DNA from: Syntrophorhabdaceae bacterium
Lineage (GTDB): Bacteria > Desulfobacterota > Syntrophorhabdia > Syntrophorhabdales > Syntrophorhabdaceae
Direction of reading: 5' to 3'
Length of the DNA stretch: 64,000 nucleotides
Assembly (NCBI GenBank): GCA_963665295.1
Contig: OY762209.1
Coordinates: 416,001 to 480,000 of the forward strand
Positions 2,228-33,357 of this stretch are shown here, piece after piece (position 1 is the stretch's first letter; every line of letters begins with the position of its first letter). Under the pieces are notes generated by a model. It ran no database searches, was not told the DNA's origin, and worked only from the letters and a program-made list of their open reading frames with translations. The translations under genes were made by a program, and so were the position numbers.

Positions 2228-5200
2228 TTAGAATCGCTCAAATTCCTCGTCCGATCCGTTTCCCGTGTCACCGAGGTTAAGGGAAATGCCCGACATCACG
2301 CTCTTCTTTGGCTCCCTATGAGGCCTTCCGTTTTTTGGCTGGCCAACCACCACACGAGAGACGCGTGGCTTGACAGTTTCGGTCGGCATTGATCTCGCCA
2401 GATGCATATTGGCATTGTCGCGAGTGGCCATACCATTTCCATCACTCTTTATCTTGAAGAAGGCGATGGCGCCCTTCAACTGTTCCGACTGGGAGGACAA
2501 CTCCTCTGACATGGAGGACATCTGTTCTGCAGCGCCTGCATTCTGTTGGATAACCTGGTTCAACTGCTGGATGGCTGAATTGACCTGTTCCGCGCCCGAG
2601 TTCTGTTCTACGCTTGCCGCGGTTATCTCCTGGACAAGCTCCGAAGTCTTCTTGATGTCCGGTACCAACTTTGTCAGCAATCCTCCTGCCAGTTCCGCCA
2701 CCTCCACACTCGAAGCGGAGAGCTTGCTTATTTCACCGGCGGCCGTCTGACTTCTTTCTGCCAATTTACGCACCTCGGAAGCCACCACCGCAAATCCTTT
2801 GCCATGCTCGCCGGCCCTTGCGGCTTCGATGGCTGCATTGAGGGCAAGGAGGTTTGTCTGACGGGCTATTTCCTCCACGATCGATATTTTGCCCGCTATT
2901 TCCTTCATTGCGCTTACTGTTTGGGTAACCGCCTTGCCGCTTTCCTCTGCGTCGCCAGCGGATTTGAGGGCTATTCTCTCGGTCTGCTGAGCGTTATCGG
3001 TATTCTGCTTTATCGTGGATGCCATTTCTTCCATGGAGGATGAGGCCTCCTCTGCAGACGCGGCCTGTTCTGTCGAACCCTGGGATATCTGTTCAGCCGT
3101 GGAACTCATTTGCTGGCTCCCCGCGGCCACCTGGTTTGATGCCTCCATAATACTCCTCACCACCTCGGTGATGCCGTTTACCATCGATGAGAGGGCCTGC
3201 ATAAGTCTGTCCTCTCCAGACCTTTCCTTTATGGTTACCACGAGATTGCCCCCCGCTATCTCCTGCGCAACGGACGTGACCTGATTCATGGCTTCTGTAA
3301 GCACATTGAGGTTGTTTTTGATCTCGTTGAAGTCACCATTATAGATGTCGGTGATCTTGGGGGGGATGTCGCCCTTGGAGATACGGTCTACGTATTCGGC
3401 AGTGACGTTGATGGGTCCTACGAAGGCATCGACAAGGTTATTGACTCCGCCTACCAGCTGACCCCAGCCGCCTACGAACTTGCCTGCCTCACCACGGACC
3501 GACAACTGACCTGCGATGGTTGCCCTGACCAGCTTGTCCGTTTCTGCAAGAAGGCCGCTCATGGTGTCGATACAGGCATTGAGGTTGTTTTTGATCTCGT
3601 TGAAGTCACCATTATAGATGTCGGTGATCTTGGGGGGGATGTCGCCCTTGGAGATACGGTCTACGTATTCGGCAGTGACGTTGATGGGTCCTACGAAGGC
3701 ATCGACAAGGTTATTGACTCCGCCTACCAGCTGACCCCAGCCGCCTACGAACTTGCCTGCCTCACCACGGACCGACAACTGACCTGCGATGGTTGCCCTG
3801 ACCAGCTTGTCCGTTTCTGCAAGAAGGCCGCTCATGGTGTCGATACAGGCATTGAGGTTGTTTTTGATCTCGTTGAAGTCACCATTATAGATGTCGGTGA
3901 TCTTGGGGGGGATGTCGCCCTTGGAGATACGGTCTACGTATTCGGCAGTGACGTTGATGGGTCCTACGAAGGCATCGACAAGGTTATTGACTCCGCCTAC
4001 CAGCTGACCCCAGCCGCCTACGAACTTGCCTGCCTCACCACGGACCGACAACTGACCTGCGATGGTTGCCCTGACCAGCTTGTCCGTTTCTGCAAGAAGG
4101 CCGCTCATGGTGTCGATACAGGCATTGAGGTTGTTTTTGATCTCGTTGAAGTCACCATTATAGATGTCGGTGATCTTGGGGGGGATGTCGCCCTTGGAGA
4201 TACGGTCTACGTATTCGGCAGTGACGTTGATGGGTCCTACGAAGGCATCGACAAGGTTATTGACTCCGCCTACCAGCTGACCCCAGCCGCCTACGAACTT
4301 GCCTGCCTCACCACGGACCGACAACTGACCTGCGATGGTTGCCCTGACCAGCTTGTCCGTTTCTGCAAGAAGGCCGCTCATGGTGTCGATACAGGCATTG
4401 AGGTTGTTTTTGATCTCGTTGAAGTCACCATTATAGATGTCGGTGATCTTGGGGGGGATGTCGCCCTTGGAGATACGGTCTACGTATTCGGCAGTGACGT
4501 TGATGGGTCCTACGAAGGCATCGACAAGGTTATTGACTCCGCCTACCAGCTGACCCCAGCCGCCTACGAACTTGCCTGCCTCACCACGGACCGACAACTG
4601 ACCTGCGATGGTTGCCCTGACCAGCTTGTCCGTTTCTGCAAGAAGGCCGCTCATGGTGTCGATACAGGCATTGAGGTTGTTTTTGATCTCGTTGAAGTCA
4701 CCATTATAGATGTCGGTGATCTTGGGGGGGATGTCGCCCTTGGAGATACGGTCTACGTATTCGGCAGTGACGTTGATGGGTCCTACGAAGGCATCGACAA
4801 GGTTATTGACTCCGCCTACCAGCTGACCCCAGCCGCCTACGAACTTGCCTGCCTCACCACGGACCGACAACTGACCTGCGATGGTTGCCCTGACCAGCTT
4901 GTCCGTTTCTGCAAGAAGGCCGCTCATGGTGTCGATACAGGCATTGAGGTTGTTTTTGATCTCGTTGAAGTCACCATTATAGATGTCGGTGATCTTGGGG
5001 GGGATGTCGCCCTTGGAGATACGGTCTACGTATTCGGCAGTGACGTTGATGGGTCCTACGAAGGCATCGACAAGGTTATTGACTCCGCCTACCAGCTGAC
5101 CCCAGCCGCCTACGAACTTGCCTGCCTCACCACGGACCGACAACTGACCTGCGATGGTTGCCCTGACCAGCTTGTCCGTTTCTGCAAGAAGGCCGCTCAT

Positions 5201-16803: not shown

Positions 16804-17155
16804 ATAATCCGTTTATGGGTGATGTATCAGCTACTAGTCTATCAAATCGTCTGCTCTTTGTATACAATAAACCAACTGCTTGTTATCCCGCTGCTGCGGA
16901 GTTCGTCTTTGCTTCTGCCTGGTCAGCAATCTTCAATGAATCGGTGCTCGCAGGCCCCGCCTAAAAGACAAGCCTGAACTCCGTATCCGCGCTCCTATCA
17001 ACCTCCATGATACCGGAGTTTCCCCAGTTTTTTCCTCCCATAAGCCCTAATCCCTTGCCACGCCGTAGTAGAGAGCATTTGATCAACAAAAAGTTTCCTG
17101 ACTTTTTGATACGTTTCTGACATGAAGGCTTATAAATACAAGAGTTGGAGACGTC

Positions 17156-17274
17156 ATGGCCGAAAACTCCCGGACTGTAGCGGTTCTTAAGGGACAGATA
17201 TCAAAATTCTCCGGAATCATTTCACAGGGCCTTTTCAAACCGAAGCGCAGGCTCGTAAAGGAAATCATTTACGG
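17156..17274 (+). pseudogene. IS4-like transposase remnant, 5' part (interrupted by the prophage)
   Basis: MAENSRTVAVLKGQISKFSGIISQGLFKPKRRLVKEIIYG continues in frame at 58537 as IQAAKDIRLSNIARVLNESIPL. Confidence 0.7.
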
Positions 17275-17280
17275 AAGGAA

Positions 17281-17438
17281 GTTGCAGCATGGGTGTTAGG
17301 GTTTAGAGATTTGCGCGATTTGGCGGGAAGGGGCGGGAATTAGTGGGATATTCCGGGATTTGGGGGTGTTAGATTTGCAATTGTCGCCTTTCAGGGAAAA
17401 TGCAAAATATAGGGGGAAAATTGCAGGTTGATGTTAGA
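17281..17438 (+). promoter_or_regulatory. Left-end putative transposase-binding sites
   Basis: GGGTGTTAG at 17291 and 17364, TTGCAGGTTGATGTTAGA at 17421; inverted counterpart at the right end. Confidence 0.6.
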
Positions 17439-17459
17439 AATTTAATGGTGTCGGAATGC

Positions 17460-17795
17460 CTACTCCACGGCGTCGAATGACGCCCCAGGGTTGGGATGTG
17501 ACGCCTTCATTCTTTCGAGAATGGCAAGATGGGTCTCATAATCCTCTCGATCCTTTGACGTCTTTATGATCCCGGAAGCATAGGCATTGATCGTATAACA
17601 CAACCGCATACTGTTTCGGGAAAAAGCATTCCTTGCCAATATACCGAGGAATTTCACGACTCCCGCTGAAGACCACTCGACATTCTTCTCAAACAGGTCA
17701 TCCTCGCCATAAATAGCCACGATTTCTTGTTGATCCTCAGCACTCAACGAAACAAACCAGTCCTTAATCCCGTAAAAATCCAGCAATCCCGACAT
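17460..17795 (-). CDS. Hypothetical accessory protein
   Basis: ORF in the same orientation as the repressor, lower GC. Confidence 0.55.
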   Translation of the reverse strand: MSGLLDFYGIKDWFVSLSAEDQQEIVAIYGEDDLFEKNVEWSSAGVVKFLGILARNAFSRNSMRLCYTINAYASGIIKTSKDREDYETHLAILERMKASHPNPGASFDAVE

Positions 17796-17893
17796 ATCGT
17801 CACTCCACAACGTCGCGTGACACCATGGGGAGTTTATCACTGTCGGCGCTTATAGATATAGGCTCATCCACGTATAGAGTCAGTGCCGAGGTA

Positions 17894-18430
17894 TCAATTA
17901 CATTCATTTTTCTTTGGCAAGAATTGCTTCCAATATTTATGTGAGGGAGAATATGCCTTAGGGTGCTCGGAATATACCGGATCGCAGTCAAGCCTTACGT
18001 TAAATGAGGAGACGATATCAATCTGATCCTTTCTCACTTTAACAATACCCTTACCTTCAGACAGGCTCAGCTTGTCTATTGAAGCTATTGGGAAAATACT
18101 AAAGAACGGGTTGCGAGTTCTCGAATATATAGTATCCTCGTTAGTGGTACTAAATTGTCCGGATGCCGAGCATTGTATCTTTGTAGTATAACAGCTTTTT
18201 ATTTTTACGGAGGATTCGTAGATATCCCAATATTCATCAGAACCAATCTTCGCAAAGGTAACTTCAACTATCTTTACTCCTGGATCTTTCTTCCATGTAG
18301 CTCTATTGAGTATTTGCATTGTTTTGGCATCATTAGGTTCTGTCGTCGCGGACTGGGCCGAGCAGACACAGATATTTCCTAATAAAATGCACAATCCGAG
18401 AAAGACCGCAAACAGATATGATTGCCTCAC
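17894..18430 (-). CDS. Exported accessory (moron-like) protein
   Basis: Signal-peptide-like N-terminus MRQSYLFAVFLGLCILLGNICVCSA; AT-rich; GAGG RBS. Confidence 0.65.
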   Translation of the reverse strand: MRQSYLFAVFLGLCILLGNICVCSAQSATTEPNDAKTMQILNRATWKKDPGVKIVEVTFAKIGSDEYWDIYESSVKIKSCYTTKIQCSASGQFSTTNEDTIYSRTRNPFFSIFPIASIDKLSLSEGKGIVKVRKDQIDIVSSFNVRLDCDPVYSEHPKAYSPSHKYWKQFLPKKNECN

Positions 18431-18631
18431 ATTTACACCTCATTCAATAAATAAGTTTATCTCCAAACTCCTTGAACAGCAGACCTAAACTCACCGGCCA
18501 GACATAGAACAAACCCCATCCACCAGGCATCATTAACGTAAAATCCCTCACATACGCGAGGGATTCAATATATAAGGCCCGGTCCGTCGTGTAGATCGTG
18601 ACGTATTCCTCCGGCGCTCTATTTCCCCCCT

Positions 18632-19255
18632 CTAATATTTCCCATTTTGCCCACCCGCGCGTTTCTTCTCCCCCTTCGATTCCTTCGGTTTGAGATCGTT
18701 CGCACCGCCCTGGGCAAAAGCGTCCTTGAGCAGCCGTTTTATCGCAGCCATATCTCGCTCCAGGTCTCCAACTTGACGGCGCAGCCCTGTGTTCTCGTCT
18801 CTGAGAGTGTCTATTTCTGTGGACATTCGGACCATTTCCTCGAACATCAGAGCATTCTGGGTCAATGCCAACTTTACCCCTCTATGTTTGCTCTCCATTA
18901 CGGTGTTAACCGCTTTGACAACGGCATCAGGGTCTTCTTCTGCCGTAATTTTTTGTGTTCCATCGGGTGTTCCGGCGTCATATCTGACCTCGGGACCATC
19001 GAATGCTATTGTATCTTGATAGTCCGATGGTTGTTGTTCTTTGTACATCGGCCCTTCACCGGTGGCAAGCCATAAGACACTCACACTTGCCGCATTAGCA
19101 AGAGCTATAAGTCTATCGCGGCTGGGCTCTGTCTCTCCTTTCGAGTAATGAGCAATCATCCTGCCAGATGTCCCGGTACGACGCCCCAATTCCTCCGCGC
19201 CCCCCACTATCTCTGCTAATTTCTTGACTCTATCCCCGAAAGATTTGTCAGCCAT
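18632..19255 (-). CDS. Prophage repressor (XRE HTH with coiled-coil C-terminus)
   Basis: GGAEELGRRTGTS...EPSRDRLIALANAASVSVLWLATGEG; GAGG RBS before ATG 19255; divergent from ner. Confidence 0.85.
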   Translation of the reverse strand: MADKSFGDRVKKLAEIVGGAEELGRRTGTSGRMIAHYSKGETEPSRDRLIALANAASVSVLWLATGEGPMYKEQQPSDYQDTIAFDGPEVRYDAGTPDGTQKITAEEDPDAVVKAVNTVMESKHRGVKLALTQNALMFEEMVRMSTEIDTLRDENTGLRRQVGDLERDMAAIKRLLKDAFAQGGANDLKPKESKGEKKRAGGQNGKY

Positions 19256-19268
19256 ATCTTTCCTCACG

Positions 19269-19402
19269 GTTCCAAGTTTCAGCCTGGAACTTGGAACCAA
19301 ACTTGGAACCTACGCCGGTTAGTTCCAAGTTGCGGTATCTTATTGACATAAAAGACAAAAATGACCGACAGGATATATCTGGCATTAGCGGGAACTTGGA
19401 AC
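19269..19402. promoter_or_regulatory. Operator array: five copies of AACTTGGAAC
   Basis: Forward at 19288, 19300, 19393; reverse (GTTCCAAGTT) at 19269, 19322; between repressor and ner. Confidence 0.75.
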
Positions 19403-19415
19403 TGATAAATTCTTC

Positions 19416-19445
19416 TTGACAAATATATCCTACCCCTTTTATACT
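19416..19445 (+). promoter_or_regulatory. Early promoter (sigma70 type), probably leaderless ner mRNA
   Basis: TTGACA (19416)-18 bp-TATACT (19440); ATG 7 nt after the -10 box, no RBS. Confidence 0.7.
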
Positions 19446-19452
19446 CCTAACT

Positions 19453-19677
19453 ATGGATATCAAGTTAACCCCACCAGCAAAAATAAAAGGGCTCCTCAGG
19501 GACCGCAAAACTTCGGCTGCCGCCATCGGGCGGAAGTTGGGCGTTTCGCGGGTATATGTGCACCTCGTCGTCTCCGGCGTGAAGCCGGGAAAAAAGGTGC
19601 GCGAGTTCATTTGCAGGGAATACGGCGTCCCGGACACTTTCTGGGTCGAGATGGACGCCTGGAGAAAAGCAGCATAA
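19453..19677 (+). CDS. Ner/Cro-like HTH regulator
   Basis: 74 aa, IKGLL...AAIGRKLGVSRVYVHLVVSG; first early gene. Confidence 0.85.
   Translation: MDIKLTPPAKIKGLLRDRKTSAAAIGRKLGVSRVYVHLVVSGVKPGKKVREFICREYGVPDTFWVEMDAWRKAA
19630..19675 (+). repeat. 46-bp direct repeat A, copy 1 (copy 2 at 20452-20497)
   Basis: 44/46 identical; encodes PDTFxxEMDAWRKAA in both copies. Confidence 0.9.
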
Positions 19678-19689
19678 AAGGAGGAAAGC

Positions 19690-19971
19690 ATGTCTCGAAC
19701 TTCAAAAAAACCAATCTTAGGACAATGGGGAGAAGGAGAAATTGACCTAAACAACCGGGTTTCAATACCGGGGTTCACTTTAGAAATTCTCCGCGAGGAG
19801 CCTATGGCAGGACAACGCGTCATTGTCATGCTGGGCGGCAAAAAAGGGATTCGCCGGATCGTCACGGAGCATTCACTTCGCCGGTGCACTTTCCCTCCCC
19901 ATTACGATTGGCTTCCATTCAAAATACTGGATAGGCTGAGCGCTGAAAATAGTCAGACCGTTGAGGGATAG
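19690..19971 (+). CDS. Hypothetical protein
   Basis: AAGGAGG RBS; 93 aa. Confidence 0.6.
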   Translation: MSRTSKKPILGQWGEGEIDLNNRVSIPGFTLEILREEPMAGQRVIVMLGGKKGIRRIVTEHSLRRCTFPPHYDWLPFKILDRLSAENSQTVEG

Positions 19972-20415
19972 TCGATGAGACTCTTTATTGAACAGCAAGA
20001 GAGCTTCAAAAAATCGCCGCGTGGTGTCGGGGTGGGGGCGAACTTTCCCACAACGGGAACAGAAAAACCCATCAATATTCTTGAGCAGGTCCCGCGCGAG
20101 GTCAGCTTTAATAACGGTATAAAAGGAACAGCACGCCGTGTAAAAGCCGACCTCGTTCACCTTGAAATAACGGGCGCGATCCGAAGTAGTGAAACCCCGG
20201 ATCGGAAAATCCTCCCGCGCCATCTGATCGGACGCGATGCGGAGCGCGATCCCCGCCTCCAGGAATCGGGAGGGTGCCGCTCTGCGTCTACGATATCCAC
20301 ACCCGCGGCATACAACATCACTATCTTGCATGTTGGCGCGGTCATTGACAGGACGAACGTCTATCCAGGTCTCTTTGCCACACATCCCGCACCTGAATTT
20401 GAAGAGGGTAAACAT
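19873..20415 (-). CDS. Antisense multi-CxxC (Zn-ribbon) protein, cassette 1
   Basis: CGMC, CRGC, CC, CSRC motifs; AGGGA RBS before ATG 20415. Confidence 0.55.
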   Translation of the reverse strand: MFTLFKFRCGMCGKETWIDVRPVNDRANMQDSDVVCRGCGYRRRRAAPSRFLEAGIALRIASDQMAREDFPIRGFTTSDRARYFKVNEVGFYTACCSFYTVIKADLARDLLKNIDGFFCSRCGKVRPHPDTTRRFFEALLLFNKESHRLSLNGLTIFSAQPIQYFEWKPIVMGRESAPAK

Positions 20416-20565
20416 TATTCCCTGCCATCCGTTACAGAAAAATTGAATCTGCCGGACACTTTCCGGGCCGAGATGGACGCCTGGAGAAAAGCAGCATGAG
20501 AAACGCGATCGGAAATAAACCTCATTGTCATAGGGTAATTGTATCAAACGTGAAGGGGGTCGTCA

Positions 20566-21039
20566 ATGTCAAAACGAAAGCCGGTAATTGACGAGAGACA
20601 GGGGGTCCTCGACTTTATGAAACCGCAAAAAGTAGACACGCACGGTCTCGGGATCAGGATCAGGCAGGCCATGAGTGAGGCTATCAGAAAGTCAGGCATG
20701 GACCGCAAGGACATATGCACCGAGATATACAAGCGGACAGGGCTCGACTTCACGAAGGCGAGCCTCGATGAATGGACGGCCGAATGCAGAGACAGGTCGT
20801 GCTGCAACGTGAGCGAGGACACAAAACGGAGTTGGGGTATACCCGGAGAGGTAATCCCCGCGTTTTGCGATGTCACCGGAGACTATGAAATCCTCTATCT
20901 GATCAGCGGCGCGGCGAACCACAAGGCCATGCGAGGAAAAGAGGTGGTGCACGCGAAGATCGGGCAGCTTAAAGAGAAGATCACCCGGGATCAGCAGGAA
21001 CTCAAGGAACTCGAAAAAGCACTACTGGAGGGAAAATGA
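20566..21039 (+). CDS. Phage early regulatory protein (CII-like HTH)
   Basis: SEAIRKSGMDRKDI...KASLDEWTAE...IPAFCDVTG. Confidence 0.65.
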   Translation: MSKRKPVIDERQGVLDFMKPQKVDTHGLGIRIRQAMSEAIRKSGMDRKDICTEIYKRTGLDFTKASLDEWTAECRDRSCCNVSEDTKRSWGIPGEVIPAFCDVTGDYEILYLISGAANHKAMRGKEVVHAKIGQLKEKITRDQQELKELEKALLEGK

Positions 21040-21043
21040 AGAC
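20988..21043 (+). repeat. 56-bp direct repeat B, copy 1 (copy 2 at 21476-21531)
   Basis: 54/56 identical; 3' end of the CII-like gene plus the next start ATGAAGAC. Confidence 0.9.
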
Positions 21044-21197
21044 AAACGAATGCACCCTGCTCAGATCGAGAACAGAAAATGACGTTTATGCAGTTTTAAT
21101 TGATGCCATGGCCGCCCCGGCAGCGTGGTTTTCATGCCTGCACTGCGCTATGCAATGGGCTATTGAAAGGGCACCTTCAGGCTATAAAATAGCCCGG

Positions 21198-21386
21198 CTA
21201 GTGGACCCCCAACTTATCGGCGATCTTCTTGACAAAATTGCCGATGTTGAAATAGTCCATGGCTCCCACAACGCCCCCACAGGAGGAGCACTGTACAAAC
21301 ATGAGCTTGAAGTTTGAGTGTGCGGGGGTGACTTCTTTAATTTCAAAACTGGTGCTGCCGCATTTGAGGCACGTTGAAGTTGCCAT
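21198..21386 (-). CDS. Antisense Zn-ribbon microprotein, cassette 2
   Basis: CLKCG...CSSCG, 62 aa; AAGGAG RBS. Confidence 0.7.
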   Translation of the reverse strand: MATSTCLKCGSTSFEIKEVTPAHSNFKLMFVQCSSCGGVVGAMDYFNIGNFVKKIADKLGVH

Positions 21387-21421
21387 AAATAAACGCTCCT
21401 TTTTTAAGAGTAATTTTATCC

Positions 21422-21478
21422 ACTATATCACACACAACCGGGGAATAGAACAATGAAAGAGTGGCATACGGCAAAGGA
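21422..21478 (+). repeat. 57-bp direct repeat C, copy 1 (copy 2 at 22009-22065)
   Basis: 54/57 identical; transposase RBS and first 8 codons; minus-strand TGnTATAGT extended -10. Confidence 0.9.
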
Positions 21479-21523
21479 TCAGCACGAACTCAAAGAACTC
21501 GAAAAAGCACTACTGGAGGGAAA

Positions 21524-21742
21524 ATGAAGACGAAAAAGACCACAATCTCGATGAGCGGCCACGAAATGGAGAAGGTAAGGAAGGCGTTACGCAAGGTCGA
21601 TCAGGACATTTTTGAATTATGTCTTCAGACGTGGGGCGACAAACCCACAAACAGAACGGCTGATATAGACCTCAATAAACTATTTCAACCCTTAGTCCGA
21701 ACTTTGGAGAAATACACAGACTTAGTTGAGGTCCAGCGGTGA
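21524..21742 (+). CDS. Hypothetical protein
   Basis: Starts inside repeat B copy 2 with GGAGG RBS and ATGA overlap. Confidence 0.5.
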   Translation: MKTKKTTISMSGHEMEKVRKALRKVDQDIFELCLQTWGDKPTNRTADIDLNKLFQPLVRTLEKYTDLVEVQR

Positions 21743-21981
21743 AACATCTTGTTTATTGTACTCATGGCCTCATTAAAATAGGTGACGTACCATTCGGACT
21801 TGGTAGCTCCTATTTTCCACGAGAAAAGGGCACCGCAGTGGCGGCAAGACTCGTCGGCGTTGGTGAGATAAAGGCTCCCGGGTTTGAGATTTATGGTGCG
21901 GTCGCATACGGGACACTTGGTCTTGACGGTCAATCGGAATTCCCACGAAAAAGCAGCTTCACGAGTCAGTTTCTCGGCCAT
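21685..21981 (-). CDS. Antisense Zn-ribbon protein, cassette 3
   Basis: CPVC...CRHC, 98 aa; AAGGAG RBS. Confidence 0.7.
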   Translation of the reverse strand: MAEKLTREAAFSWEFRLTVKTKCPVCDRTINLKPGSLYLTNADESCRHCGALFSWKIGATKSEWYVTYFNEAMSTINKMFHRWTSTKSVYFSKVRTKG

Positions 21982-22039
21982 GATTATTCTCCTTGCGCCT
22001 TTCCTTCAACTATATCACACACAATCGGGGAATAGAACC

Positions 22040-24283
22040 ATGAAAGAGTGGCACACGGCAAAGGAAATCGCGGGGATCAACAGCACGCTCGGCATTGAGC
22101 CGGGGACGCCACGGGGAGTTACAAAAAAGGCCCTCTCGGAGCAGTGGTCACCGTCCCGGCCCCGCGCCGGTAGAGGGGGTGGCCGTGAATACCACGTAAA
22201 CGCCCTCCCCGAAGAGACCCGCGTGGCGATCCTCACGGCCGCGATCCCCGAGACGGCCCCCGCCGACTCGTCCGCTCCCCCTGACTCTGAAGCCGTCCTT
22301 GAAGCCTACGCGTCAACCCGCCGGATCACCCTTTCACCCGCCCAGCTTGCCGACCCCGTGATCCAGGCCAAGCTTGCCGTGGCCCGCGCGATAGACGCAT
22401 GTCCCGCGTACATGGGCCGGGAAAAGCTCATAGCCACCCTCGCCGCCAGATACGGCAAATCACCCATGACCATCAGGAGATGGCGAGACGACATCGAGGC
22501 CATGGAAACCAAAACGACGCCCAGAATCACCCTGGGGGAGACGAAGATAGAGCTTCCCCGGTCGAACGCGTTCAGCGACGAAGCCATTGCATACGGCCTG
22601 TCCATATACGCGAAGAACATCCGGGCCGGGGTAAAAGCGGCATACCGGGCCATGGCGGCCCAGGCGGGCTCCCGGCAATGGACCATGGGGGACTATTCGA
22701 GCTTTACCCGGCTCGTCAAGCAGGTGCCCGAAATGGTGTGGATCTATATCCGCAAAGGGCCGACCGGCTTCGAGCTTCAATGCGTCCCCAAGATCATACA
22801 GAAATGGACCGCCGTACCCTGCCAGAGCGTGCTTTGCGGGGATCAGAAGGTCTTTGACTATGAGATATACGACGCGGCCTCATCCCGGATCATCATCCCC
22901 AACGGCTATTTCTGGATGGACTGTTCATCCAGGGCGATCGTCGGCGCGTGGGTCGAGATGGGGCATTACAACAGCTACACCGTGGGCAGCGCCCTCCGGG
23001 AGGCCATGAGGTACGGCATATCCGACGAGATATTCACCGACTGGGGCAAGCCGGAGACCTCAAAGCACCTCGCTCATATGCTCCGGTCCCTTTCCGGCAT
23101 TTCCGTGACGGGAGACTTCGTCGCCATGAACGAGAAATACGGCAACATGGACGAAGTGGAACACCGCAAAGCCCAACCAGGAAAGCCGTGGATGAAACCC
23201 ATTGAAAACGTGATGAATATCCTCGATACCCGCATGTCCGAGAGGTTCCTGGGCGGCTTCAGGAAGCGCAACAACGACGCGTGGGTCAACAAGGTCATAC
23301 AGGCGCGGCTCAAGAAAGACCGGAAAATCACCATGTCGTCAACGCGACCGGCGAGCGCCAGTGAGGCCCGGGGACTCATGAGCGTGGAGCAGTTCGTCCA
23401 GACCGTCTTTTCCGTGGTGCAGGAACACAACAAGTCGCAAAAACAACTCAAGGAAGGGGGCTCTATAATCCCCGAGGATTTTTTTACCGCGGGTATCACC
23501 CGGCAGCCGAAAAAGAAACTTGCGGATCGTACCCTTGATTACATTTTTATGCCCCACAAGGACGTCATGCCCCGGCAGAGCGTGGTCTACCTCCAGGCCC
23601 GCTCCGACGATTACCGGGGATACCGCTCCACGGCCCTCGCCACGATCAAGGAGAAGGTGCGGGTATCCTTCAACCCTTATGACCCCGACGCCGTGGCGGT
23701 AATCACGGACATCAAGTCCGGGGACATCATCGACATAGGCGAACCGTGGCACTCTCAGGACCGTAGCGACCGGGAAGGCACCTCGGCAAAGAGAAAACGT
23801 CAGGCGGAGATCATGCGCTGGGTCGCCGAGAACGCGCGGAGGGTAAAGGAAGCCTTTGACATCAAAATAGAAGACGCCCGGGAGCCGGGCGACGCTGCCC
23901 CCATAGAGGTGATAGGACCCGCCTCGGCGGTGGCCCAGGAAGCCCAAAAAGTGACGCGCCTCTATGAATTGAAAAGAGACAATGACCGCCTCATCGAGAA
24001 GGAACACACGAAGATGGGCCGGGATGGCGTTAAGGACCTCATAGCCGAGATGGAAGACCACGCGTTCCGCGTACCCAAGCAAAGCAAAGAGCGATACCGC
24101 CTGTGGTGCATGCTCGACCTGGACATGAAAAAGGGCGTTCTCCTTTCCGAGGAAGAGGAGGAATTCCACACGCACTACCAGAAAGACACGGAATGGAGGA
24201 TACACCGCGAGAACCATGAAGAATGGGGGACCGACTACATCGACATCAAAATCACGCCTGATGCCCTTCAGGTAGTCAAATAA
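22040..24283 (+). CDS. Mu-type DDE transposase (MuA-like)
   Basis: N-terminal Mu HTH (WHTAKEIAG...RAGRGGGREYHVNALP); candidate catalytic residues GDQ, TDWG, KPIE. Confidence 0.92.
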   Translation: MKEWHTAKEIAGINSTLGIEPGTPRGVTKKALSEQWSPSRPRAGRGGGREYHVNALPEETRVAILTAAIPETAPADSSAPPDSEAVLEAYASTRRITLSPAQLADPVIQAKLAVARAIDACPAYMGREKLIATLAARYGKSPMTIRRWRDDIEAMETKTTPRITLGETKIELPRSNAFSDEAIAYGLSIYAKNIRAGVKAAYRAMAAQAGSRQWTMGDYSSFTRLVKQVPEMVWIYIRKGPTGFELQCVPKIIQKWTAVPCQSVLCGDQKVFDYEIYDAASSRIIIPNGYFWMDCSSRAIVGAWVEMGHYNSYTVGSALREAMRYGISDEIFTDWGKPETSKHLAHMLRSLSGISVTGDFVAMNEKYGNMDEVEHRKAQPGKPWMKPIENVMNILDTRMSERFLGGFRKRNNDAWVNKVIQARLKKDRKITMSSTRPASASEARGLMSVEQFVQTVFSVVQEHNKSQKQLKEGGSIIPEDFFTAGITRQPKKKLADRTLDYIFMPHKDVMPRQSVVYLQARSDDYRGYRSTALATIKEKVRVSFNPYDPDAVAVITDIKSGDIIDIGEPWHSQDRSDREGTSAKRKRQAEIMRWVAENARRVKEAFDIKIEDAREPGDAAPIEVIGPASAVAQEAQKVTRLYELKRDNDRLIEKEHTKMGRDGVKDLIAEMEDHAFRVPKQSKERYRLWCMLDLDMKKGVLLSEEEEEFHTHYQKDTEWRIHRENHEEWGTDYIDIKITPDALQVVK

Positions 24284-24295
24284 AGGAGGTAGTAC

Positions 24296-25045
24296 ATGAC
24301 CGACCAGAAACCCAGCACCATAGCGCCGCTTCAGAGCGTGACGCTATGCAGGAAAGCCATGGAGATCATTGTCAACGCCCATGACAGGCTCGACCACATG
24401 ATCGGCTTTTGCGGCAAGACGGGCACGGGAAAGAGCGTCGCCGCGGGATACACGGCGAACAAATATGACGCCTATTACGTCGAATGCAGATGGACGTGGA
24501 CAAGAAAGGCGTTCCTCGTCAACCTGTGCAAGGCGATAGGCATAATCCCCGAAAAGACGATGTCCGAAATGGTGGACGAAATATGCGCGGCCCTCGTCGC
24601 ATCGGGGAAGCCCCTCATCATCGATGAAATGGACTATGTGGCGGACCACAAATCGGTGGAGATAGTCCGGGACATCTACGAGGGATCGGGGCACACGCCC
24701 ATCCTCCTCATAGGAGAAGAGGAACTCCCGAGAAAGCTCGCCTCCTGGAAGCAGTTCAACGGCAGGATTATCGACTGGATACACACCACTATGGGCTCGG
24801 CCGATGACGCGAAGGTCTTAAGCCGCATTTACTGCCGGAAAGGGGTGGTGATCCAGGACGACCTCCTTGAGGATATGACTGCCGCCGTGGACGGGCTTAT
24901 CCGCTACATGTGCAACAACCTCGTCCGGATCGAGGAAGAAACCCTTGCCATGGGCAAGCAGGAAGTGGACCTTTCCCTGTGGCGCAAATGGGGCAAGGGC
25001 TACCTCACCGGAGGGATGAGGATCACCCAGCGAGGCTCGCGATGA
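24296..25045 (+). CDS. Transposition AAA+ ATPase (MuB-like)
   Basis: GKTGTGKS Walker A, LIIDE Walker B; follows the transposase. Confidence 0.92.
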   Translation: MTDQKPSTIAPLQSVTLCRKAMEIIVNAHDRLDHMIGFCGKTGTGKSVAAGYTANKYDAYYVECRWTWTRKAFLVNLCKAIGIIPEKTMSEMVDEICAALVASGKPLIIDEMDYVADHKSVEIVRDIYEGSGHTPILLIGEEELPRKLASWKQFNGRIIDWIHTTMGSADDAKVLSRIYCRKGVVIQDDLLEDMTAAVDGLIRYMCNNLVRIEEETLAMGKQEVDLSLWRKWGKGYLTGGMRITQRGSR

Positions 25046-25650
25046 GGGAGCCCGTGGACACCACAAAGCCCATGGGTACCAGGGACGATCTATGGAAGCT
25101 GATCCGCGCCATGAAGACCTTCACCGTCCCGGAGCTTCGGGAAGCGGTACATATGGACGCGACCACCATCGACCTCTACGTGAGGAGCCTCGTGAAGGCA
25201 GGATACCTCGAAAGGATCGATATATCCGGGGGCGCGGCCAAGGAAATAGGAAGAACAAGATACAGGTACACGCTGCTGAAAGACGCCCTTGAGGCCCCGA
25301 GGATACGGAAGGACGGTTCCCCCGTCACCCAGGGGAGGGGGAGGCTCAATATGTGGCGGTCCATGAAAGTGCTCAAGCGCTTCGGCCTTGCCGACATCGT
25401 CGCATGCTCCTCGACGGAGGAACACCCGGTCGCGTGGGAAGAGGCCGAGACGTACCTTAGATACCTACTGAAAGCCGGGTACCTGAAACAATTGACCAAG
25501 ACATCGGTGGAAAAGGCCGTATATGCCCTGGTACGGTGGACCGGTCCCAAAGCGCCCATGATCCAGCGGATCAGGCAGGTGTGGGACCCCAACCTCAAAA
25601 AGGTGACATGGCGCACGGCCCAGGACGATATCAGGGGGGAAACACGGTGA
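25042..25650 (+). CDS. Tandem winged-HTH protein of Mu-like early region
   Basis: Two W-x-x-(I/M)-(R/K)...F...YxxxLxKAGYL units; TGPKAP. Confidence 0.75.
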   Translation: MREPVDTTKPMGTRDDLWKLIRAMKTFTVPELREAVHMDATTIDLYVRSLVKAGYLERIDISGGAAKEIGRTRYRYTLLKDALEAPRIRKDGSPVTQGRGRLNMWRSMKVLKRFGLADIVACSSTEEHPVAWEEAETYLRYLLKAGYLKQLTKTSVEKAVYALVRWTGPKAPMIQRIRQVWDPNLKKVTWRTAQDDIRGETR

Positions 25651-25988
25651 GCGCGGACCCGAGAATGGAATTGTTACAACAGATGGTTGAAACGCTCGGA
25701 TTACAGGAGGTGGCCGAGCAGATAGGAAAATCGAAATCCGCCTTGTGTCATGTGGTAAACGGCACATACCGGGGACGCCCGGACAGAATACTCCTCGCGG
25801 TGGAACAAAGGTACTCGCAACGGACCGTTGAATGTCCGGTCATGGGGGATATCACCCTCTCCAGGTGTGTGGAGGAAAGGAACCGCCCCTTCGCGGCGGT
25901 AAACCCCATAAGAGTGAGGCTCGCGAGGACATGCCCGAAGTGCGAGCGGGGAGCGGTGAAAAACGTAAGAGAGGAGAGGAAAATATGA
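25647..25988 (+). CDS. HTH protein with Cys-rich C-terminus
   Basis: VAEQIGKSKSALCHVVNGTY...VECPVMG...CPKC. Confidence 0.75.
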   Translation: MSADPRMELLQQMVETLGLQEVAEQIGKSKSALCHVVNGTYRGRPDRILLAVEQRYSQRTVECPVMGDITLSRCVEERNRPFAAVNPIRVRLARTCPKCERGAVKNVREERKI

Positions 25989-26227
25989 AAACACACGAAC
26001 CAAGCAACGTTGTAACGTGCGTCACGTGCGACCATCGGCCGGAATTTGATATATCGGAGACTTTAGAAGGCCTGAGAACCCACTTGACCGAGGTCCACCA
26101 CGTAACCTACCTAACGGGCACTAAAAAGATGGTCATGCATCGTGACGGCCAGGGTTTCTACGAAACGCTCTATGAGGGAGAGATACAGGGGATCAAGCTC
26201 GAACGCCGCGTGGCGGGGAGGAAATAG
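25985..26227 (+). CDS. Hypothetical protein
   Basis: GAGG RBS, ATGA overlap, CxxC...H...H. Confidence 0.55.
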   Translation: MKTHEPSNVVTCVTCDHRPEFDISETLEGLRTHLTEVHHVTYLTGTKKMVMHRDGQGFYETLYEGEIQGIKLERRVAGRK

Positions 26228-27490: not shown

Positions 27491-27783
27491 GAGACGAGAC
27501 GCGGCGATGCCTGGAGGAGCGGTATTGCTCCGCCAAAGCATGCAACGACGGGAAATCCCCCCGATGCCGGTATTACCGGCCCGCCAAAAGATACAAGGCG
27601 TTCGGATGGGATGTTACGGTCCGGTTTGCAGACGGGCATGAGGAGATGTACCACTGGAGAGGCTGTACGGAGGCGGACGCCCGACGGAAGGGGCTCCTCA
27701 AGAGCCATGCGCGGGAAATAGTGAGGGTGGAAGCCCTTGACGAGGAAACATGGATCAGGGCCTACGGCATAGGCTCTATGTGA
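27487..27783 (+). CDS. Hypothetical protein
   Basis: GTGA overlap; in operon. Confidence 0.5.
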   Translation: MRDETRRCLEERYCSAKACNDGKSPRCRYYRPAKRYKAFGWDVTVRFADGHEEMYHWRGCTEADARRKGLLKSHAREIVRVEALDEETWIRAYGIGSM

Positions 27784-27794
27784 AAGGAGGAAAC

Positions 27795-28331
27795 ATGACG
27801 ACATTGACGGACATTGAAAAGGGAGCGAAAGAATACGCGGACTCACGGGACCGGTTGGGGGCTACGCTGAAAGACCTCAACGACAAGATCGAAAACCTTA
27901 AACGACAGTATCTGCCGGGGATCAAGCTCCAGGTGAGGATCGCCGCAGAGAAAAAATTGAGTCTCAAGAATATGATCGAGGCGGCGAGGAACCTGTTCAC
28001 AAAGCCCCGCACGGTCATTATCCACGGGGTCAAGGTGGGACTCAAGAAGTCAAAGGGTAAGATCGTGTGGCCCAAAGAAAAGACCGAAGCGATAGTCAAA
28101 CTCATTGAGAAGCACTTCCCCGACAAAGCGGACATCCTGGTCGTGACAACGAAGAAACCGGACAAAAAGGCCCTCGCCCGGCTCACCGCGGCGGACCTCA
28201 AAAAACTCGGCATCGAGGTAAATGACACGGGGGACGCGGCGGTGATCGAACCTACTGACTCGGACGTGGAGAAGTGGATGGATAGGCTGTTGAAAGAAAA
28301 AGAACAAGACGCGGAAGAGGAGGCTGCATAA
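27795..28331 (+). CDS. Gam-like host-nuclease inhibitor
   Basis: Coiled coil, then LFTKPRT...HGVKVGLKK...PDKKAL...LKKLGI; AAGGAGG RBS. Confidence 0.8.
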   Translation: MTTLTDIEKGAKEYADSRDRLGATLKDLNDKIENLKRQYLPGIKLQVRIAAEKKLSLKNMIEAARNLFTKPRTVIIHGVKVGLKKSKGKIVWPKEKTEAIVKLIEKHFPDKADILVVTTKKPDKKALARLTAADLKKLGIEVNDTGDAAVIEPTDSDVEKWMDRLLKEKEQDAEEEAA

Positions 28332-29242
28332 TGCCGCGCATTCAATACAGGGAAATCAATTTCGGGCCGGAGCGCATGGGCATTATCAAGAAGGTAAATG
28401 CCCTCATTGAGGATTACCGGGCGCAGGGGTATAACCTCACCCTCAGACAACTGTACTACCAGTTTGTTGCCCGCGCATGGATCGCGAACAAACAGCAGGA
28501 ATACAAGCGCCTCGGCGATATAGTCAACGACGGACGGGTAGCCGGGCTTATCGACTGGTATGCCATAGAAGACCGGACCCGCAATCTCAGCGGCAATTCT
28601 CACTGGAATGACCCGACGCAGATCATCGATGCGGCCGCGCGGTCCTTTCAGATCGACAAATGGACCAACCAGTTCTTCCGCATAGAAGTATGGGTCGAAA
28701 AGGACGCCTTGGAGGGTGTGGTAGGGCAAGCGGCCCGGGCCCTGGACATAAACTATTTTTCGTGCCGTGGCTATACCTCCCAAACTTCGATGTGGGATGC
28801 GGGGCAGCGGCTTAAAGGCTATGTGAGCCGGGGCCAAACGGTGGTTATCCTTCACCTGGGAGACCACGATCCGAGCGGAATAGACATGAGCCGGGACATC
28901 CAGGAAAGGTTAAGCCTCTTCATGGGAGACAAGTCCTGGGGTCTCAAATTCCAAAGAATAGCCCTTAACGAGGATCAGGTAAGAAAGTACAATCCCCCGC
29001 CAAACCCCGCGAAAGTGACGGATTCCCGTTATGAGGGCTATAGGGCGAAATACGGCGAGGAAAGCTGGGAGCTTGACGCGTTGGAGCCCAAGGTTATCAC
29101 GCGGCTCATTCAAAACGCGGTCCGAAACTACCGGGACGGGGATAAATACGCGGCAAAAGCGGAAGAGGAGCGGTCGCATCGGTCTCTCTTGACGACAGCC
29201 GCAAAACGATGGGGCGACGTGGCCGCCTATTTGACGAAGTAA
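28331..29242 (+). CDS. Topoisomerase VI-A/Spo11-like TOPRIM protein
   Basis: TLRQLYY winged helix, VWVEKDAL, RGY, GDHDPSG, WELDAL. Confidence 0.75.
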   Translation: MPRIQYREINFGPERMGIIKKVNALIEDYRAQGYNLTLRQLYYQFVARAWIANKQQEYKRLGDIVNDGRVAGLIDWYAIEDRTRNLSGNSHWNDPTQIIDAAARSFQIDKWTNQFFRIEVWVEKDALEGVVGQAARALDINYFSCRGYTSQTSMWDAGQRLKGYVSRGQTVVILHLGDHDPSGIDMSRDIQERLSLFMGDKSWGLKFQRIALNEDQVRKYNPPPNPAKVTDSRYEGYRAKYGEESWELDALEPKVITRLIQNAVRNYRDGDKYAAKAEEERSHRSLLTTAAKRWGDVAAYLTK

Positions 29243-29516
29243 AGGAGGAACCGGTGGCCGGGAAGAGAAAAAAGAACAAGAGTGCAAATGTTACGGCCGT
29301 GATTTACGACGGGCAAGAGGAAATCTACTATGACTGCATTAGCTCCGGCCGGTGCTCCTTTGCGCTGTTTCCCATCATGCCCCCTGCCGAGAGCGATGAA
29401 TGCACGTACAAAGGAGACGGAACATGCATGAGTCGGGACGCGCGAAGGGCGGCCCTGGAGGTTCTGCATAGCACTATCACGGCCCTGCTTAAAGAAAACG
29501 ACGAGGAGGATCAAGG

Positions 29517-31305: not shown

Positions 31306-31581
31306 GTGAACATGGGATCGGTAACGCTCAAAGCCAAGCAGCAGCATAGCTATAAGAAATACCCGGCCAGTAGTGAAAGACTGTGCGTGACGTGCAATTT
31401 CTACGTACCTGACCTACGACAGTTCATGCGCGATGAAGCGTCGGTGTCGGAACCCCGTTGCGCCATGCTCGGTCTCAAGAGCGCCCCGGCGTACCGGGTC
31501 CTGCCGGATCACGGGTGCGACGCCCATGACAACAGCGAATACATGGCGCGTCTGGAGCGGCGCGCAAAGGAGAAAGAATAG
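31306..31581 (+). CDS. Cys-rich hypothetical protein
   Basis: CVTC...C...CD; in operon. Confidence 0.55.
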   Translation: MNMGSVTLKAKQQHSYKKYPASSERLCVTCNFYVPDLRQFMRDEASVSEPRCAMLGLKSAPAYRVLPDHGCDAHDNSEYMARLERRAKEKE

Positions 31582-31584
31582 GCG

Positions 31585-31779
31585 ATGGACGGGACAATGA
31601 CGTTGACGGAAGCTCACGAAAAGGCACAGGTAGGCGATAAGCTGAAGCACCTGGAGCGCCAGCTTATTCTCGTGAGAAAAGAGACGTTCATGGCGACGGT
31701 GAAAGGCATGGGACCGAAGTGGATGGACGTCTTTCATGGCGAGGGATGGATCATTATCCCCGCAAAGAAGGGGAACTAA
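31585..31779 (+). CDS. Hypothetical protein
   Basis: AAGGAG RBS; in operon. Confidence 0.5.
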   Translation: MDGTMTLTEAHEKAQVGDKLKHLERQLILVRKETFMATVKGMGPKWMDVFHGEGWIIIPAKKGN

Positions 31780-32055
31780 ATGGAAGACCTGTCGCCCCGG
31801 CATCAAAAGCCATGGCCGGTGTCGGAAAAGCAGCGCGGGGAGATCGCGCGGTATGCTGCCGCTATCACCTGGAGGATCAAAAACGGCTTCGACGCGTGGC
31901 TGCTAACCCGTCATCGCTACACATCGGTTGAGAATATCCCGGATTGGCACGCGGCGGCGAAAGTGATCGACTCCCTCCGGGCCATGTGCCGGAGGGAACA
32001 CAATTGTAGGAGGTGTGTCACTGCGTGCAGCGAATGGACAGAGAGGTATACATAG
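31780..32055 (+). CDS. GemA C-terminal-like protein
   Basis: SEKQRGEI...W...AAKVIDSLRAM. Confidence 0.5.
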   Translation: MEDLSPRHQKPWPVSEKQRGEIARYAAAITWRIKNGFDAWLLTRHRYTSVENIPDWHAAAKVIDSLRAMCRREHNCRRCVTACSEWTERYT

Positions 32056-32319
32056 ATGGTACCTGTTAAACTGAGGGAAAACACGCTCATCGAACGGTGC
32101 CCGAAGTGCGGGAACAACACGGAGTTTTCGGCGTTCTCCCGCCAATGTGGCGTTGACATTTGCGAAATATGGGTTAAATGCTCCTGCGGGTATGACCCTA
32201 CCGGAGGGGACAGTATGAAAAGAGTCGAGGACACGTGGGGATCGTTGACGCAGGGAACGATAGAGATGGCCCTGGATGTCTGGAACGGAGAAATACAAGA
32301 GGCAAGGAGCCCGGCATAG
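32056..32319 (+). CDS. Lar-like Zn-ribbon protein
   Basis: CPKCG...VKCSCG...ALDVWN. Confidence 0.5.
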   Translation: MVPVKLRENTLIERCPKCGNNTEFSAFSRQCGVDICEIWVKCSCGYDPTGGDSMKRVEDTWGSLTQGTIEMALDVWNGEIQEARSPA

Positions 32320-32622
32320 ATGGAGTCCTGGGTATACAAGATCATGCCGCAACTCACGATGGAGGACCTCCCCGAGGGATACCGGGTCGTGGCTGATATC
32401 GTGGGCATTGAGAACGCCGTGAAACTGTCGGAACATCTGGGGGGACTTCCTTTCTACTTCCCCCAGATCGACGGATTGCTCCGGCGCAAGCGGGACGCGG
32501 CCATAAGAAAGGAGTTCAACGGGAGCAATTACCGCGATCTTGCCCGGAAATACAACTTGACGGAACGCTGGATTCGTGAAATAGTAGATAGTTCCACCCA
32601 CGAACAATCCCCCCTTTTCTGA
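32320..32622 (+). CDS. Mor/C-family transcription activator
   Basis: GGLPFYFP...RDAAIRKEFNGSNYRDLARKYNLTERWIREIV. Confidence 0.92.
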   Translation: MESWVYKIMPQLTMEDLPEGYRVVADIVGIENAVKLSEHLGGLPFYFPQIDGLLRRKRDAAIRKEFNGSNYRDLARKYNLTERWIREIVDSSTHEQSPLF

Positions 32623-32883
32623 CCCACCACAGAGAATTGAAATAGTGAAGTGCTTCTTCGGACCCCATAGGGGCGTCCGTGGTCTAATCTCGTCATGCAA
32701 GAGCCCCATTTGAGAACCGAAAGCGCGACGGCCGTATCCTCCCCGAAGGCGTCGCGCTTTCACCCCCAGAAGATAACCCGGACGACCAATAGACCTCAGG
32801 GCCGGGGAGCGGATTCCGTCCGCCCCCGACCCCCGCATGACGAATGCAAATGCCCGTAGGGCATAACATAGCGAGGAAAAACC

Positions 32884-33357
32884 ATGAAAGAGAACTTTGA
32901 ACCGATTCTGCAATTCACTCTCAACGAAGAAAGGGGCTTTGTGGTTGACCATGCGGGCGCGACGAAGATGGGCCTTACCATCGGCCTTATGAAGGCGTTG
33001 AAGCTCGACCTTAACCATGACGGGGTGGTGGACGTGGGGGACGTCAAAATGGTGGATGCTCCGCTCGTAAGAAAGGTGTTCCGCGCCGAATTCTGGGACC
33101 GGATTCATGGGGATGACCTCCCCTCGGGGATTGACCTCATCGCCGCCGATTTCTGCTACAACGCGGGTCCCCAGGCGGCAAAGACCATCGCCATGTACAA
33201 GGACATCGGGGAATGCACGCTCCGGCGTCAGATGTACTACTGGACCCTGAGACAGGGCAACCCGGGCAAGTACAAAGACGATTTCGACGGATGGATAGGC
33301 CGGTCCCTGCGTTGCTGGCAGAGGGCCGTGGAATTACAGGCGGGATACCGCAAATGA
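32884..33357 (+). CDS. Endolysin (glycoside hydrolase 108-like)
   Basis: E-x-GFVVD-x-AGATKMGLT, FWD, DFCYNAG, FDGWIGR. Confidence 0.8.
   Translation: MKENFEPILQFTLNEERGFVVDHAGATKMGLTIGLMKALKLDLNHDGVVDVGDVKMVDAPLVRKVFRAEFWDRIHGDDLPSGIDLIAADFCYNAGPQAAKTIAMYKDIGECTLRRQMYYWTLRQGNPGKYKDDFDGWIGRSLRCWQRAVELQAGYRK

Follow-up and report, generated by a model that had tools for sequence, protein, structure and literature searches.

A doubled accessory-gene slot between the regulator and MuA genes of a Mu-like prophage

How do two alternative accessory units come to stand side by side at one junction of a phage early operon, between duplicated ends of the neighbouring core genes? The question is raised by the window, a stretch of 64,000 nucleotides (nt) from contig OY762209.1 of a Syntrophorhabdaceae bacterium, whose genome is one closed contig of 5.5 Mb. 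The window carries a complete Mu-like prophage, and in its early operon, between the gene of a regulator (g157) and that of the Mu-type transposase A (MuA), the region 20988-22065 is a doubled slot holding two units, cargo 2 and cargo 3. We regard it as a doubled moron slot, morons being extra DNA at places where related phages have two genes side by side, as described in passages of PMC4378225 and PMC3029335, and we think it probable, if well short of certain, that the stack arose from a single non-homologous joint.

Two cargoes and a three-nucleotide joint

The region is laid out as B-cargo 2-C|B'-cargo 3-C', where B stems from the end of g157 and C from the start of MuA with its leader (Table 1). 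The copies of B are 59 nt long and 95% identical, those of C 60 nt long and 93% identical. Both repeats lie where the original prediction on this DNA had placed them, overlapping at the GGA of 21476-21478, each being 3 nt longer than it had claimed. In a self-comparison of 17001-26000 (E<=1e-3) the sole further direct repeat was a pair, A, that is described below. Since the left edge of B and the right edge of C are the joint, and their other edges are the places where the cargoes diverge, one event explains both repeats. A fusion open reading frame (ORF) runs across the joint and ends in an ATGA overlap with the plus-strand gene of cargo 3 (c3plus). B' has the His codon of the aligned relatives at a position where B has Gln. 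There are no inverted repeats at the unit ends, no stem-loops at the unit boundaries and no transposase or integrase inside the units.

Two Logan contigs span the C|B' joint without differences, one of 511 nt (21014-21524; runs X1 and X3) and one of 380 nt (21223-21602; run X4). The short-read contigs that bridge the joint come from three runs of two studies, one of which runs may be the source sample of the genome. Among the assembled contigs over the region, the only form in which the reads were compared with it, neither a collapsed-unit joint nor a circle was seen, and a degenerate pattern written for the exact C|B' joint matched nothing in viral contigs. Contigs of a further run, X5, match the window and then diverge within cargo 1, which lies upstream of g157 (at 19851, 19980 and 20181); this suggests that the X5 sample holds a related phage variant with different content.

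Each cargo of the window is a convergent pair of genes that overlap at their 3' ends. The original prediction had missed the plus-strand partners (c2plus and c3plus) and had reported the minus-strand genes (c2minus and c3minus), both of which we confirmed: each encodes a CxxC...CxxC protein and has AAGGAG 9 or 7 nt before its ATG. The genes of the pair overlap by 120 nt in cargo 2 and by 58 nt in cargo 3, and the ATG of c2plus overlaps the stop codon of g157 (ATGA). The original prediction had seen no obvious similarity between the two cargoes, and here they proved unrelated: their DNA does not match, and neither the two minus proteins nor the two plus proteins align in BLASTP at E<=100. Both differ from their neighbours in base composition, the G+C fraction of the cargoes being 0.476 and 0.478 versus 0.538 in g157, 0.590 in MuA and 0.566 in the prophage.

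The c2minus family comprises at least 40 protein clusters, in which C9, C33 and C36 are invariant and C6 is conserved at 90% or more. Its AlphaFold2 (AF2) model, with a predicted local distance difference test score (pLDDT) of 86, is a Zn ribbon of three strands and a helix. With its two conserved CxxC pairs it scores 17.4 bits against Pfam Zn_ribbon_13 and 21.7 bits against NCBIfam ECs_2282_CxxC, below the respective cutoffs of 23 and 37. Its partner c2plus has a core motif in common with the partners in the related contigs L041 and L042, and matches DUF7012 at E 3.4e-4, below the cutoff. All four Cys of c3minus are invariant. This protein is rare, with 2 homologs (78% and 65%) among 5.8 billion proteins and one weak match (32%, E 2.7e-4) in the 95 other genomes of the order; it was not found in 400 other genomes sampled from the phylum, and a first viral scan showed no relative.

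No function for the cargoes was given by any family, defence model, atlas cluster or fold. None of the six window cargo proteins matched a PADLOC defence model at E<=0.01, Foldseek gave no match at E<=0.001 for c2minus or c3minus, and a wide VIA fold search with c2minus returned generic Zn ribbons alone (best Z 3.6). The best protein atlas scores, 0.88 for c1minus of cargo 1 and 0.81 for c2plus, provided no lead to function, and the predicted complex of c2plus with c2minus had a score (0.01) that speaks neither for nor against a complex.

The slot and its antisense motif in related phages

We compared the junction in 12 lineages that have a phrog_2345 regulator followed by MuA, treating any loci that share a contig as a single lineage, and likewise the L026 group, whose members are near-identical; all scanned regulators match phrog_2345. 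The junction is empty in four of them (L162, L167, L168 and L169), where stop and start codons overlap or lie no more than 17 nt apart. Six lineages carry one unit (L005, which is a second prophage of the same genome, L006, L007, the L026 group, L044 and L161) and two lineages, the window and the viral contig L163, carry two. In the eight occupied lineages, regulator and MuA are separated by 407-1068 nt, and six unrelated cargo types are found there, four of which encode CxxC...CxxC proteins. The gene at the MuA side is on the minus strand in 10 of 10 units. Cargo 2 is alone in the slot in L006 (407 nt) and L026 (419 nt), compared with 413 nt for unit 1 of the window, and cargo 3 is alone in L044. 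The relatives do not all carry one cargo, then, and because their cargoes differ the slot is truly interchangeable, as the original prediction had supposed. Extra DNA is present in the 8 occupied lineages between genes that are contiguous in the 4 empty ones, and judged from these sequences the ancestral state is the empty junction, with the regulator stop and the MuA start overlapping.

The c2 pair is convergent and overlapping in all five lineages with visible context, and is found at three positions: between regulator and MuA, between Ner and regulator (L041), and upstream of the Ner-like gene (L042). The stack of L163 is an independent one, its cargoes differing from those of the window and its regulator belonging to another subfamily. 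Nucleotides -4 to +26 of MuA are perfectly repeated there (30 nt; 2073-2102 and 2608-2637), and an 11-nt repeat (2107-2117 and 2593-2603) brackets the second unit. A blastn search of 19400-22400 against 50,697 phage records gave no match, and a loose pattern search gave one true relative among the 115 loci listed.

The original prediction had also pointed to a minus-strand motif resembling an extended -10 element in repeat C, upstream of the minus gene, and this motif proved to be present in all eight occupied lineages. The motif, A[CT]TATATCA, reads TGATATAGT or TGATATAAT on the minus strand and has the shape of an extended -10. It adjoins the minus gene in 8 of 8 occupied lineages and is found in 0 of 4 empty junctions; it lies 22-53 nt upstream of the MuA ATG and is invariant in six aligned MuA leaders carrying four different cargoes. 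The bases from the motif to the ribosome-binding site (RBS) of the minus gene are alike in L006, L007, L026 and L044 despite their different cargoes. In the 64-kb window ACTATATCA, the plus-strand form of TGATATAGT, occurs twice, once per copy of C, where shuffles expect 0.42 copies and give two or more in 5 of 100 cases. Motif and leader together would fit a promoter block that belongs to the occupied slot. In L044 we observed two leader-block copies with ACTATATCA, 132 nt apart upstream of MuA (reverse complement, 3329 and 3461); the copy adjoining c3minus is diverged and is followed by approximately 95 nt that are possibly the remnant of a lost unit.

Repeated gene ends occur at other early junctions too. 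Repeat pair A, missed in the original prediction, flanks cargo 1, a conserved convergent pair (c1plus and c1minus). A lies in the Ner-like gene. The intergenic region after A', when aligned to the Ner-end-to-regulator junction of the second prophage, which lacks cargo 1, has the layout seen there. By all appearances pair A was left at the Ner-regulator junction by an event like the one behind the stack. In L026 and L044, cargo 1 is present with no repeat. In L007 an 80-aa minus gene stands between the copies of a 43-nt repeat (2356-2398 and 2674-2716), which consists of the RBS of the Ner-like gene and its first 10 codons.

Some further repeats were noted in the relatives. L042 has four leader/RBS copies of 45-71 nt (2192-2262, 2416-2486, 2805-2875 and 3156-3226) that head successive small early genes, the c2-like pair among them, in a cassette-like layout bounded by these linkers. 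In L016 a 43-nt repeat (84%; 2763-2805 and 4477-4519) consists of hairpin, RBS and ATG, with one copy directly behind the regulator gene and the second copy 1.7 kb downstream. L007 carries an in-frame tandem peptide repeat in the N-terminal linker of MuA (4318-4450).

Origin of the stack

In the scheme that we favour, the basic state is a phrog_2345 regulator gene adjacent to gene A, the gene of MuA, and accessory units have been inserted at the junction. In the typical unit the ATG of the plus gene overlaps the preceding stop codon (ATGA), so that the plus gene would be made with the lytic early operon, and the minus gene converges on it, with overlapping 3' ends. Placed just behind the extended -10-like element (TGATATAGT or TGATATAAT), the minus gene would be transcribed in the lysogen, where the early operon is repressed; on induction, early transcription would run antisense through it and the plus partner would be made. 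The slot would in this way pair a lysogen-phase gene with a lytic-phase gene, overlapping and convergent, a pairing that can be tested for exclusion, toxicity or regulation.

The stack would have formed when, at the GGA microhomology, MuA nucleotide +26 of a cargo-2 phage was joined to regulator nucleotide -51 of a closely related cargo-3 phage, possibly through a deletion between two co-resident prophage copies. A single unequal crossover of this sort would create the B and C repeats together, let both units keep their expression signals, and leave the 24-codon in-frame fusion ORF still ending in ATGA before c3plus. Either unit could later be lost by homologous recombination between the 59- and 60-nt repeats. 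The flanks are consistent with such a history. The affinity changes across the joint: on its left side stands a regulator most like that of the cargo-2 phage L006 (60%) and least like that of L044 (53%), and on its right side MuA (49.6%) and MuB (68% vs 50%) are closest to those of the cargo-3 phage L044. The 5-7% difference between the repeat copies and the His codon in B' likewise point to two parent phages.

Two proposals of the original prediction bear on the origin of the stack. It had seen in the conserved flanks a pair of recombination arms, which is not supported: third-codon-position identity, calculated over six lineages, is 0.47 both at the MuA 5' end and in the final 45 nt of the regulator, against 0.30-0.49 in the other windows of the regulator gene apart from its first 45 nt, which have the highest value (0.61). 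It had also proposed that homologous recombination between the repeats could expand or collapse the slot. Such recombination can exchange units, or remove them, where two phages are closely related, but it cannot alone have built the stack, since the C|B' joint shares just the 3-nt GGA.

Several observations weigh against an origin in one accidental joint between two phages. No parent with near-identical flanks was found, the relatives being 45-75% identical in protein, so that the two-parent history is one that we infer. In the stacks of both the window and L163 the truncated copy of MuA breaks off at nucleotide +26, an agreement that a random one-off event does not predict, and the flank duplications that recur at several junctions could point to a more regular process. 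As to the expression signals, a consensus promoter scan reported no promoter in C, which was missed because it has no -35, and the L163 unit that adjoins the real MuA (unit 2) is without the motif, which means that the slot frame does not always supply a promoter.

A more regular process is known from T4-type phages. Parts of PMC2839356 and PMC4122927 describe PeSL cassettes, in which the variable ORFs of a hyperplastic region stand between short conserved regulatory sequences, the PeSLs being present in these lytic phages as many copies of a promoter and stem-loop of about 100 bp. Shuffling of this type at the present slot, which comes close to the view of the original prediction and which we hold to be possible if rather unlikely, would use the start and promoter blocks as short homology; circles with a C|B joint would leave and re-enter by single crossover, and stacks would form and collapse repeatedly. 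Two of the eight occupied slots being double, both with MuA broken at +26, is what one would expect from it, and it would accommodate the diverged second C-like copy of L044, the recurrence of flank repeats (A/A', L007, L016 and the four RBS linkers of L042), the presence of the c2 pair at three different slots in different phages, and a promoter, leader and RBS block that is conserved across different cargoes; the passages of PMC2839356 provide the precedent. As with the PeSLs of those passages, the short conserved flanks would provide signals for expression, and through circles they could allow cassettes to be gained or lost. The joint itself is the difficulty, since with 3 nt of homology it would still require an illegitimate step. 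Nor is the flank DNA specially conserved: the last 45 nt of the regulator, about 70% identical across relatives, are too dissimilar for homologous exchange. No recombinase or single-strand annealing protein was recognised among 18 further window ORFs (16 from the early/middle prophage and 2 from the left flank), and among the contigs circles and collapsed forms were not seen. Unlike PeSLs, the repeats of the window are pieces of the neighbouring core genes, without a stem-loop and from a non-homologous joint, and B, C and the motif occur twice each and not as many dispersed copies.

The same GGA joint would serve for an in-place tandem duplication of one B-cargo-C unit, after which one cargo was replaced by homologous exchange with a second phage, for which flanks 93-95% alike would suffice; this needs two events where one is enough and leaves the change of affinity across the joint unexplained, and we consider it very unlikely. 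Still less credence is due to an assembly chimera of two strain variants or to a target-site duplication by a mobile element. Repeats at variant boundaries can mislead assemblers, but the closed genome and the contigs of three runs that cross the joint without differences effectively exclude a chimera; insertions do duplicate their targets, but the B-cargo-C|B'-cargo-C' arrangement is more than a plain target duplication and the units contain neither transposase nor integrase. The single-joint origin accounts for both repeat pairs at once, and we prefer it to these alternatives.

A bolder extension, which we put forward as doubtful, would make the slot a recombinase-free, integron-like capture site. 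Units would be added at one preferred nucleotide, MuA +26, maybe the upstream edge of RNA polymerase bound at the antisense promoter, and would hence each bring a copy of the promoter block; the pairs would be antagonistic, with a minus gene that serves, say, exclusion or toxicity in the lysogen and a plus gene, made only on induction, that switches the minus gene off. In integrons a platform promoter drives interchangeable, stackable cassettes, and an integrase gene and attC-type imperfect inverted repeats are present. The slot differs from them in having no recombinase family among the scanned neighbouring ORFs, no attC-like inverted repeats at the unit ends and microhomology only at the joint.

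Known accessory regions and the surrounding prophage

The units resemble the morons of temperate phages in their lower G+C content than that of the neighbours, in a promoter-like signal and in their probable expression from the prophage. They differ in being mostly convergent, 3'-overlapping pairs and not single ORFs, and no clear terminator was found, the only candidate at the stack being a weak hairpin (21207-21191). The promoter block looks common to the slot instead of being brought by each cargo, and two alternatives are stacked with duplicated gene ends. A closer parallel to the repeats is gene 68 of mycobacteriophage Island3, which passages of PMC3029335 describe as an inserted gene flanked by repeats of about 50 bp of the upstream gene 3' end; for this indel its authors invoke recombination with an unknown partner genome, or deletion. 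As described there, Island3 has just one pair of repeats around one inserted gene, with no stacked alternatives, antisense gene or duplicated downstream gene start. For Mu-like phages of Pseudomonas, passages of PMC4378225 report fixed left-arm (early) positions with 0-6 accessory ORFs that differ between phages. These are another phage group with another host; the passages make no mention of flank duplications, convergent pairs or a conserved antisense promoter, and the word 'opposite' is absent from the main text. In the literature covered, no paper was found that describes, for Mu-like phages, alternative units stacked between duplicated ends of core genes, built of convergent overlapping pairs and sharing an antisense promoter of the slot at the MuA start. 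As far as these sources go, left-arm accessory regions of Mu-like phages, morons and PeSLs are already known, and what appears new is the combination just named.

If the stack did arise from one microhomology joint, the locus would be a preserved scar of phage gene gain in which two alternative units stand side by side. With single-unit and empty forms available in relatives, moron gain without a dedicated recombinase becomes testable, as does the role of short duplicated gene ends in the loss or movement of units. The +26 break, if proved general, would indicate a promoter-tied recombination hot spot.

Table 1. Positions of the features discussed, in window coordinates
Feature	Position	Strand	Remarks
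Repressor-like helix-turn-helix (HTH) gene, 222 aa	18632-19300	-	Pfam HTH_3, E 3.5e-5; Phage_CI_repr under its cutoff
Ner-like early gene, 74 aa	19453-19677	+	phrog_1468 transcriptional repressor, E 1.6e-3
Repeat A	19630-19675		3' end of Ner-like gene; 46 nt, 96% identical to A'
c1plus, cargo 1, 93 aa	19690-19971	+	47-48% aa identity in L026/L028 and L044; no family match
c1minus, cargo 1 Zn-ribbon gene, 180 aa	19873-20415	-	48-53% aa identity in L008, L026, L028 and L044
Repeat A'	20452-20497		Remnant of Ner 3' end, frame and TGA stop kept
Promoter-like site upstream of c1minus	20538-20566	-	TTGACG, 17 nt, TACAAT, with TG; consensus match only
Early regulator g157, 157 aa	20566-21039	+	phrog_2345 transcriptional regulator, E 1.8e-25
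Repeat B	20988-21046		Last 51 nt of g157 with stop, then first bases of the coupled plus ORF
c2plus, cargo 2, 93 aa	21036-21317	+	44-47% aa identity in L006 and L026 group
c2minus, cargo 2 Zn ribbon, 62 aa	21198-21386	-	72-75% aa identity in L006 and L026 group
Repeat C	21419-21478		Truncated copy of MuA leader (motif 21422-21430, RBS, ATG 21453) and first 26 nt of MuA
Fusion ORF, 24 codons in frame	21453-21527	+	MuA codons 1-8, joint codon, last 15 codons of g157-type gene
Joint	21476-21478		GGA common to C and B' (3-nt microhomology)
Repeat B'	21476-21534		3' end of second g157-type gene
c3plus, cargo 3, 72 aa	21524-21742	+	48% aa identity over 63 residues in L044, equivalent position
c3minus, cargo 3 Zn ribbon, 98 aa	21685-21981	-	49% homolog in L044
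Repeat C'	22006-22065		Functional MuA leader (motif 22009-22017) and start
MuA, 747 aa	22040-24283	+	Pfam HTH_Tnp_Mu_1, E 5.9e-11
MuB-like AAA protein	24296-25045	+	Pfam AAA_22, E 6.7e-13

The prophage was recognised as Mu-like by its early genes for repressor, Ner, MuA and MuB together with a Mu-type head and a contractile tail; the structural families matched are terminase, portal, head morphogenesis, sheath, tape measure and baseplate. The repressor-like gene has a homolog in the equivalent place in relatives, and MuA has 45-59% aa identity to the MuA proteins of relatives. The regulator g157 is the gene that had been labelled 'CII-like' in the original prediction, and its L163 homolog also matches phrog_101 (CII-like) at E 1e-5. 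The second related Mu-like prophage of the genome lies at G000:C1:5431919-5441918 (L002/L005/L045), the host being lysogenic for both. Its Ner protein is the counterpart to which the Ner-like protein of the window is 66% identical, its Ner and regulator genes are adjacent, and its regulator-MuA slot is filled by another cargo, made up of a plus ORF of 69 aa and a phrog_585 minus gene of 122 aa.

In cargo 1 the two genes overlap by 99 nt, and the matches of c1minus to zinc-finger families are weak, all under their cutoffs. The -35 of the promoter-like site upstream of c1minus overlaps the g157 ATG. Minus-strand -35-like hexamers overlap this ATG in the stretch with the first 45 nt of g157 (window 20561-20610), where third-codon-position identity is highest, and the start region of the gene may be a conserved divergent promoter.

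Four more minus-strand ORFs (125-401 aa), without family match, lie in 27776-29287 and 31414-33108, where the early/middle region of the prophage runs on the plus strand, and may likewise be accessory units. Finally, in the distant Mu-like contigs L172, L175-L177, L183, L184, L188, L191 and L193-L195, residues 1-69/74 of MuA are matched by a minus gene that lies about 430-620 nt upstream of the MuA gene, which we take to fit the N-terminal homology between Mu repressor and transposase.

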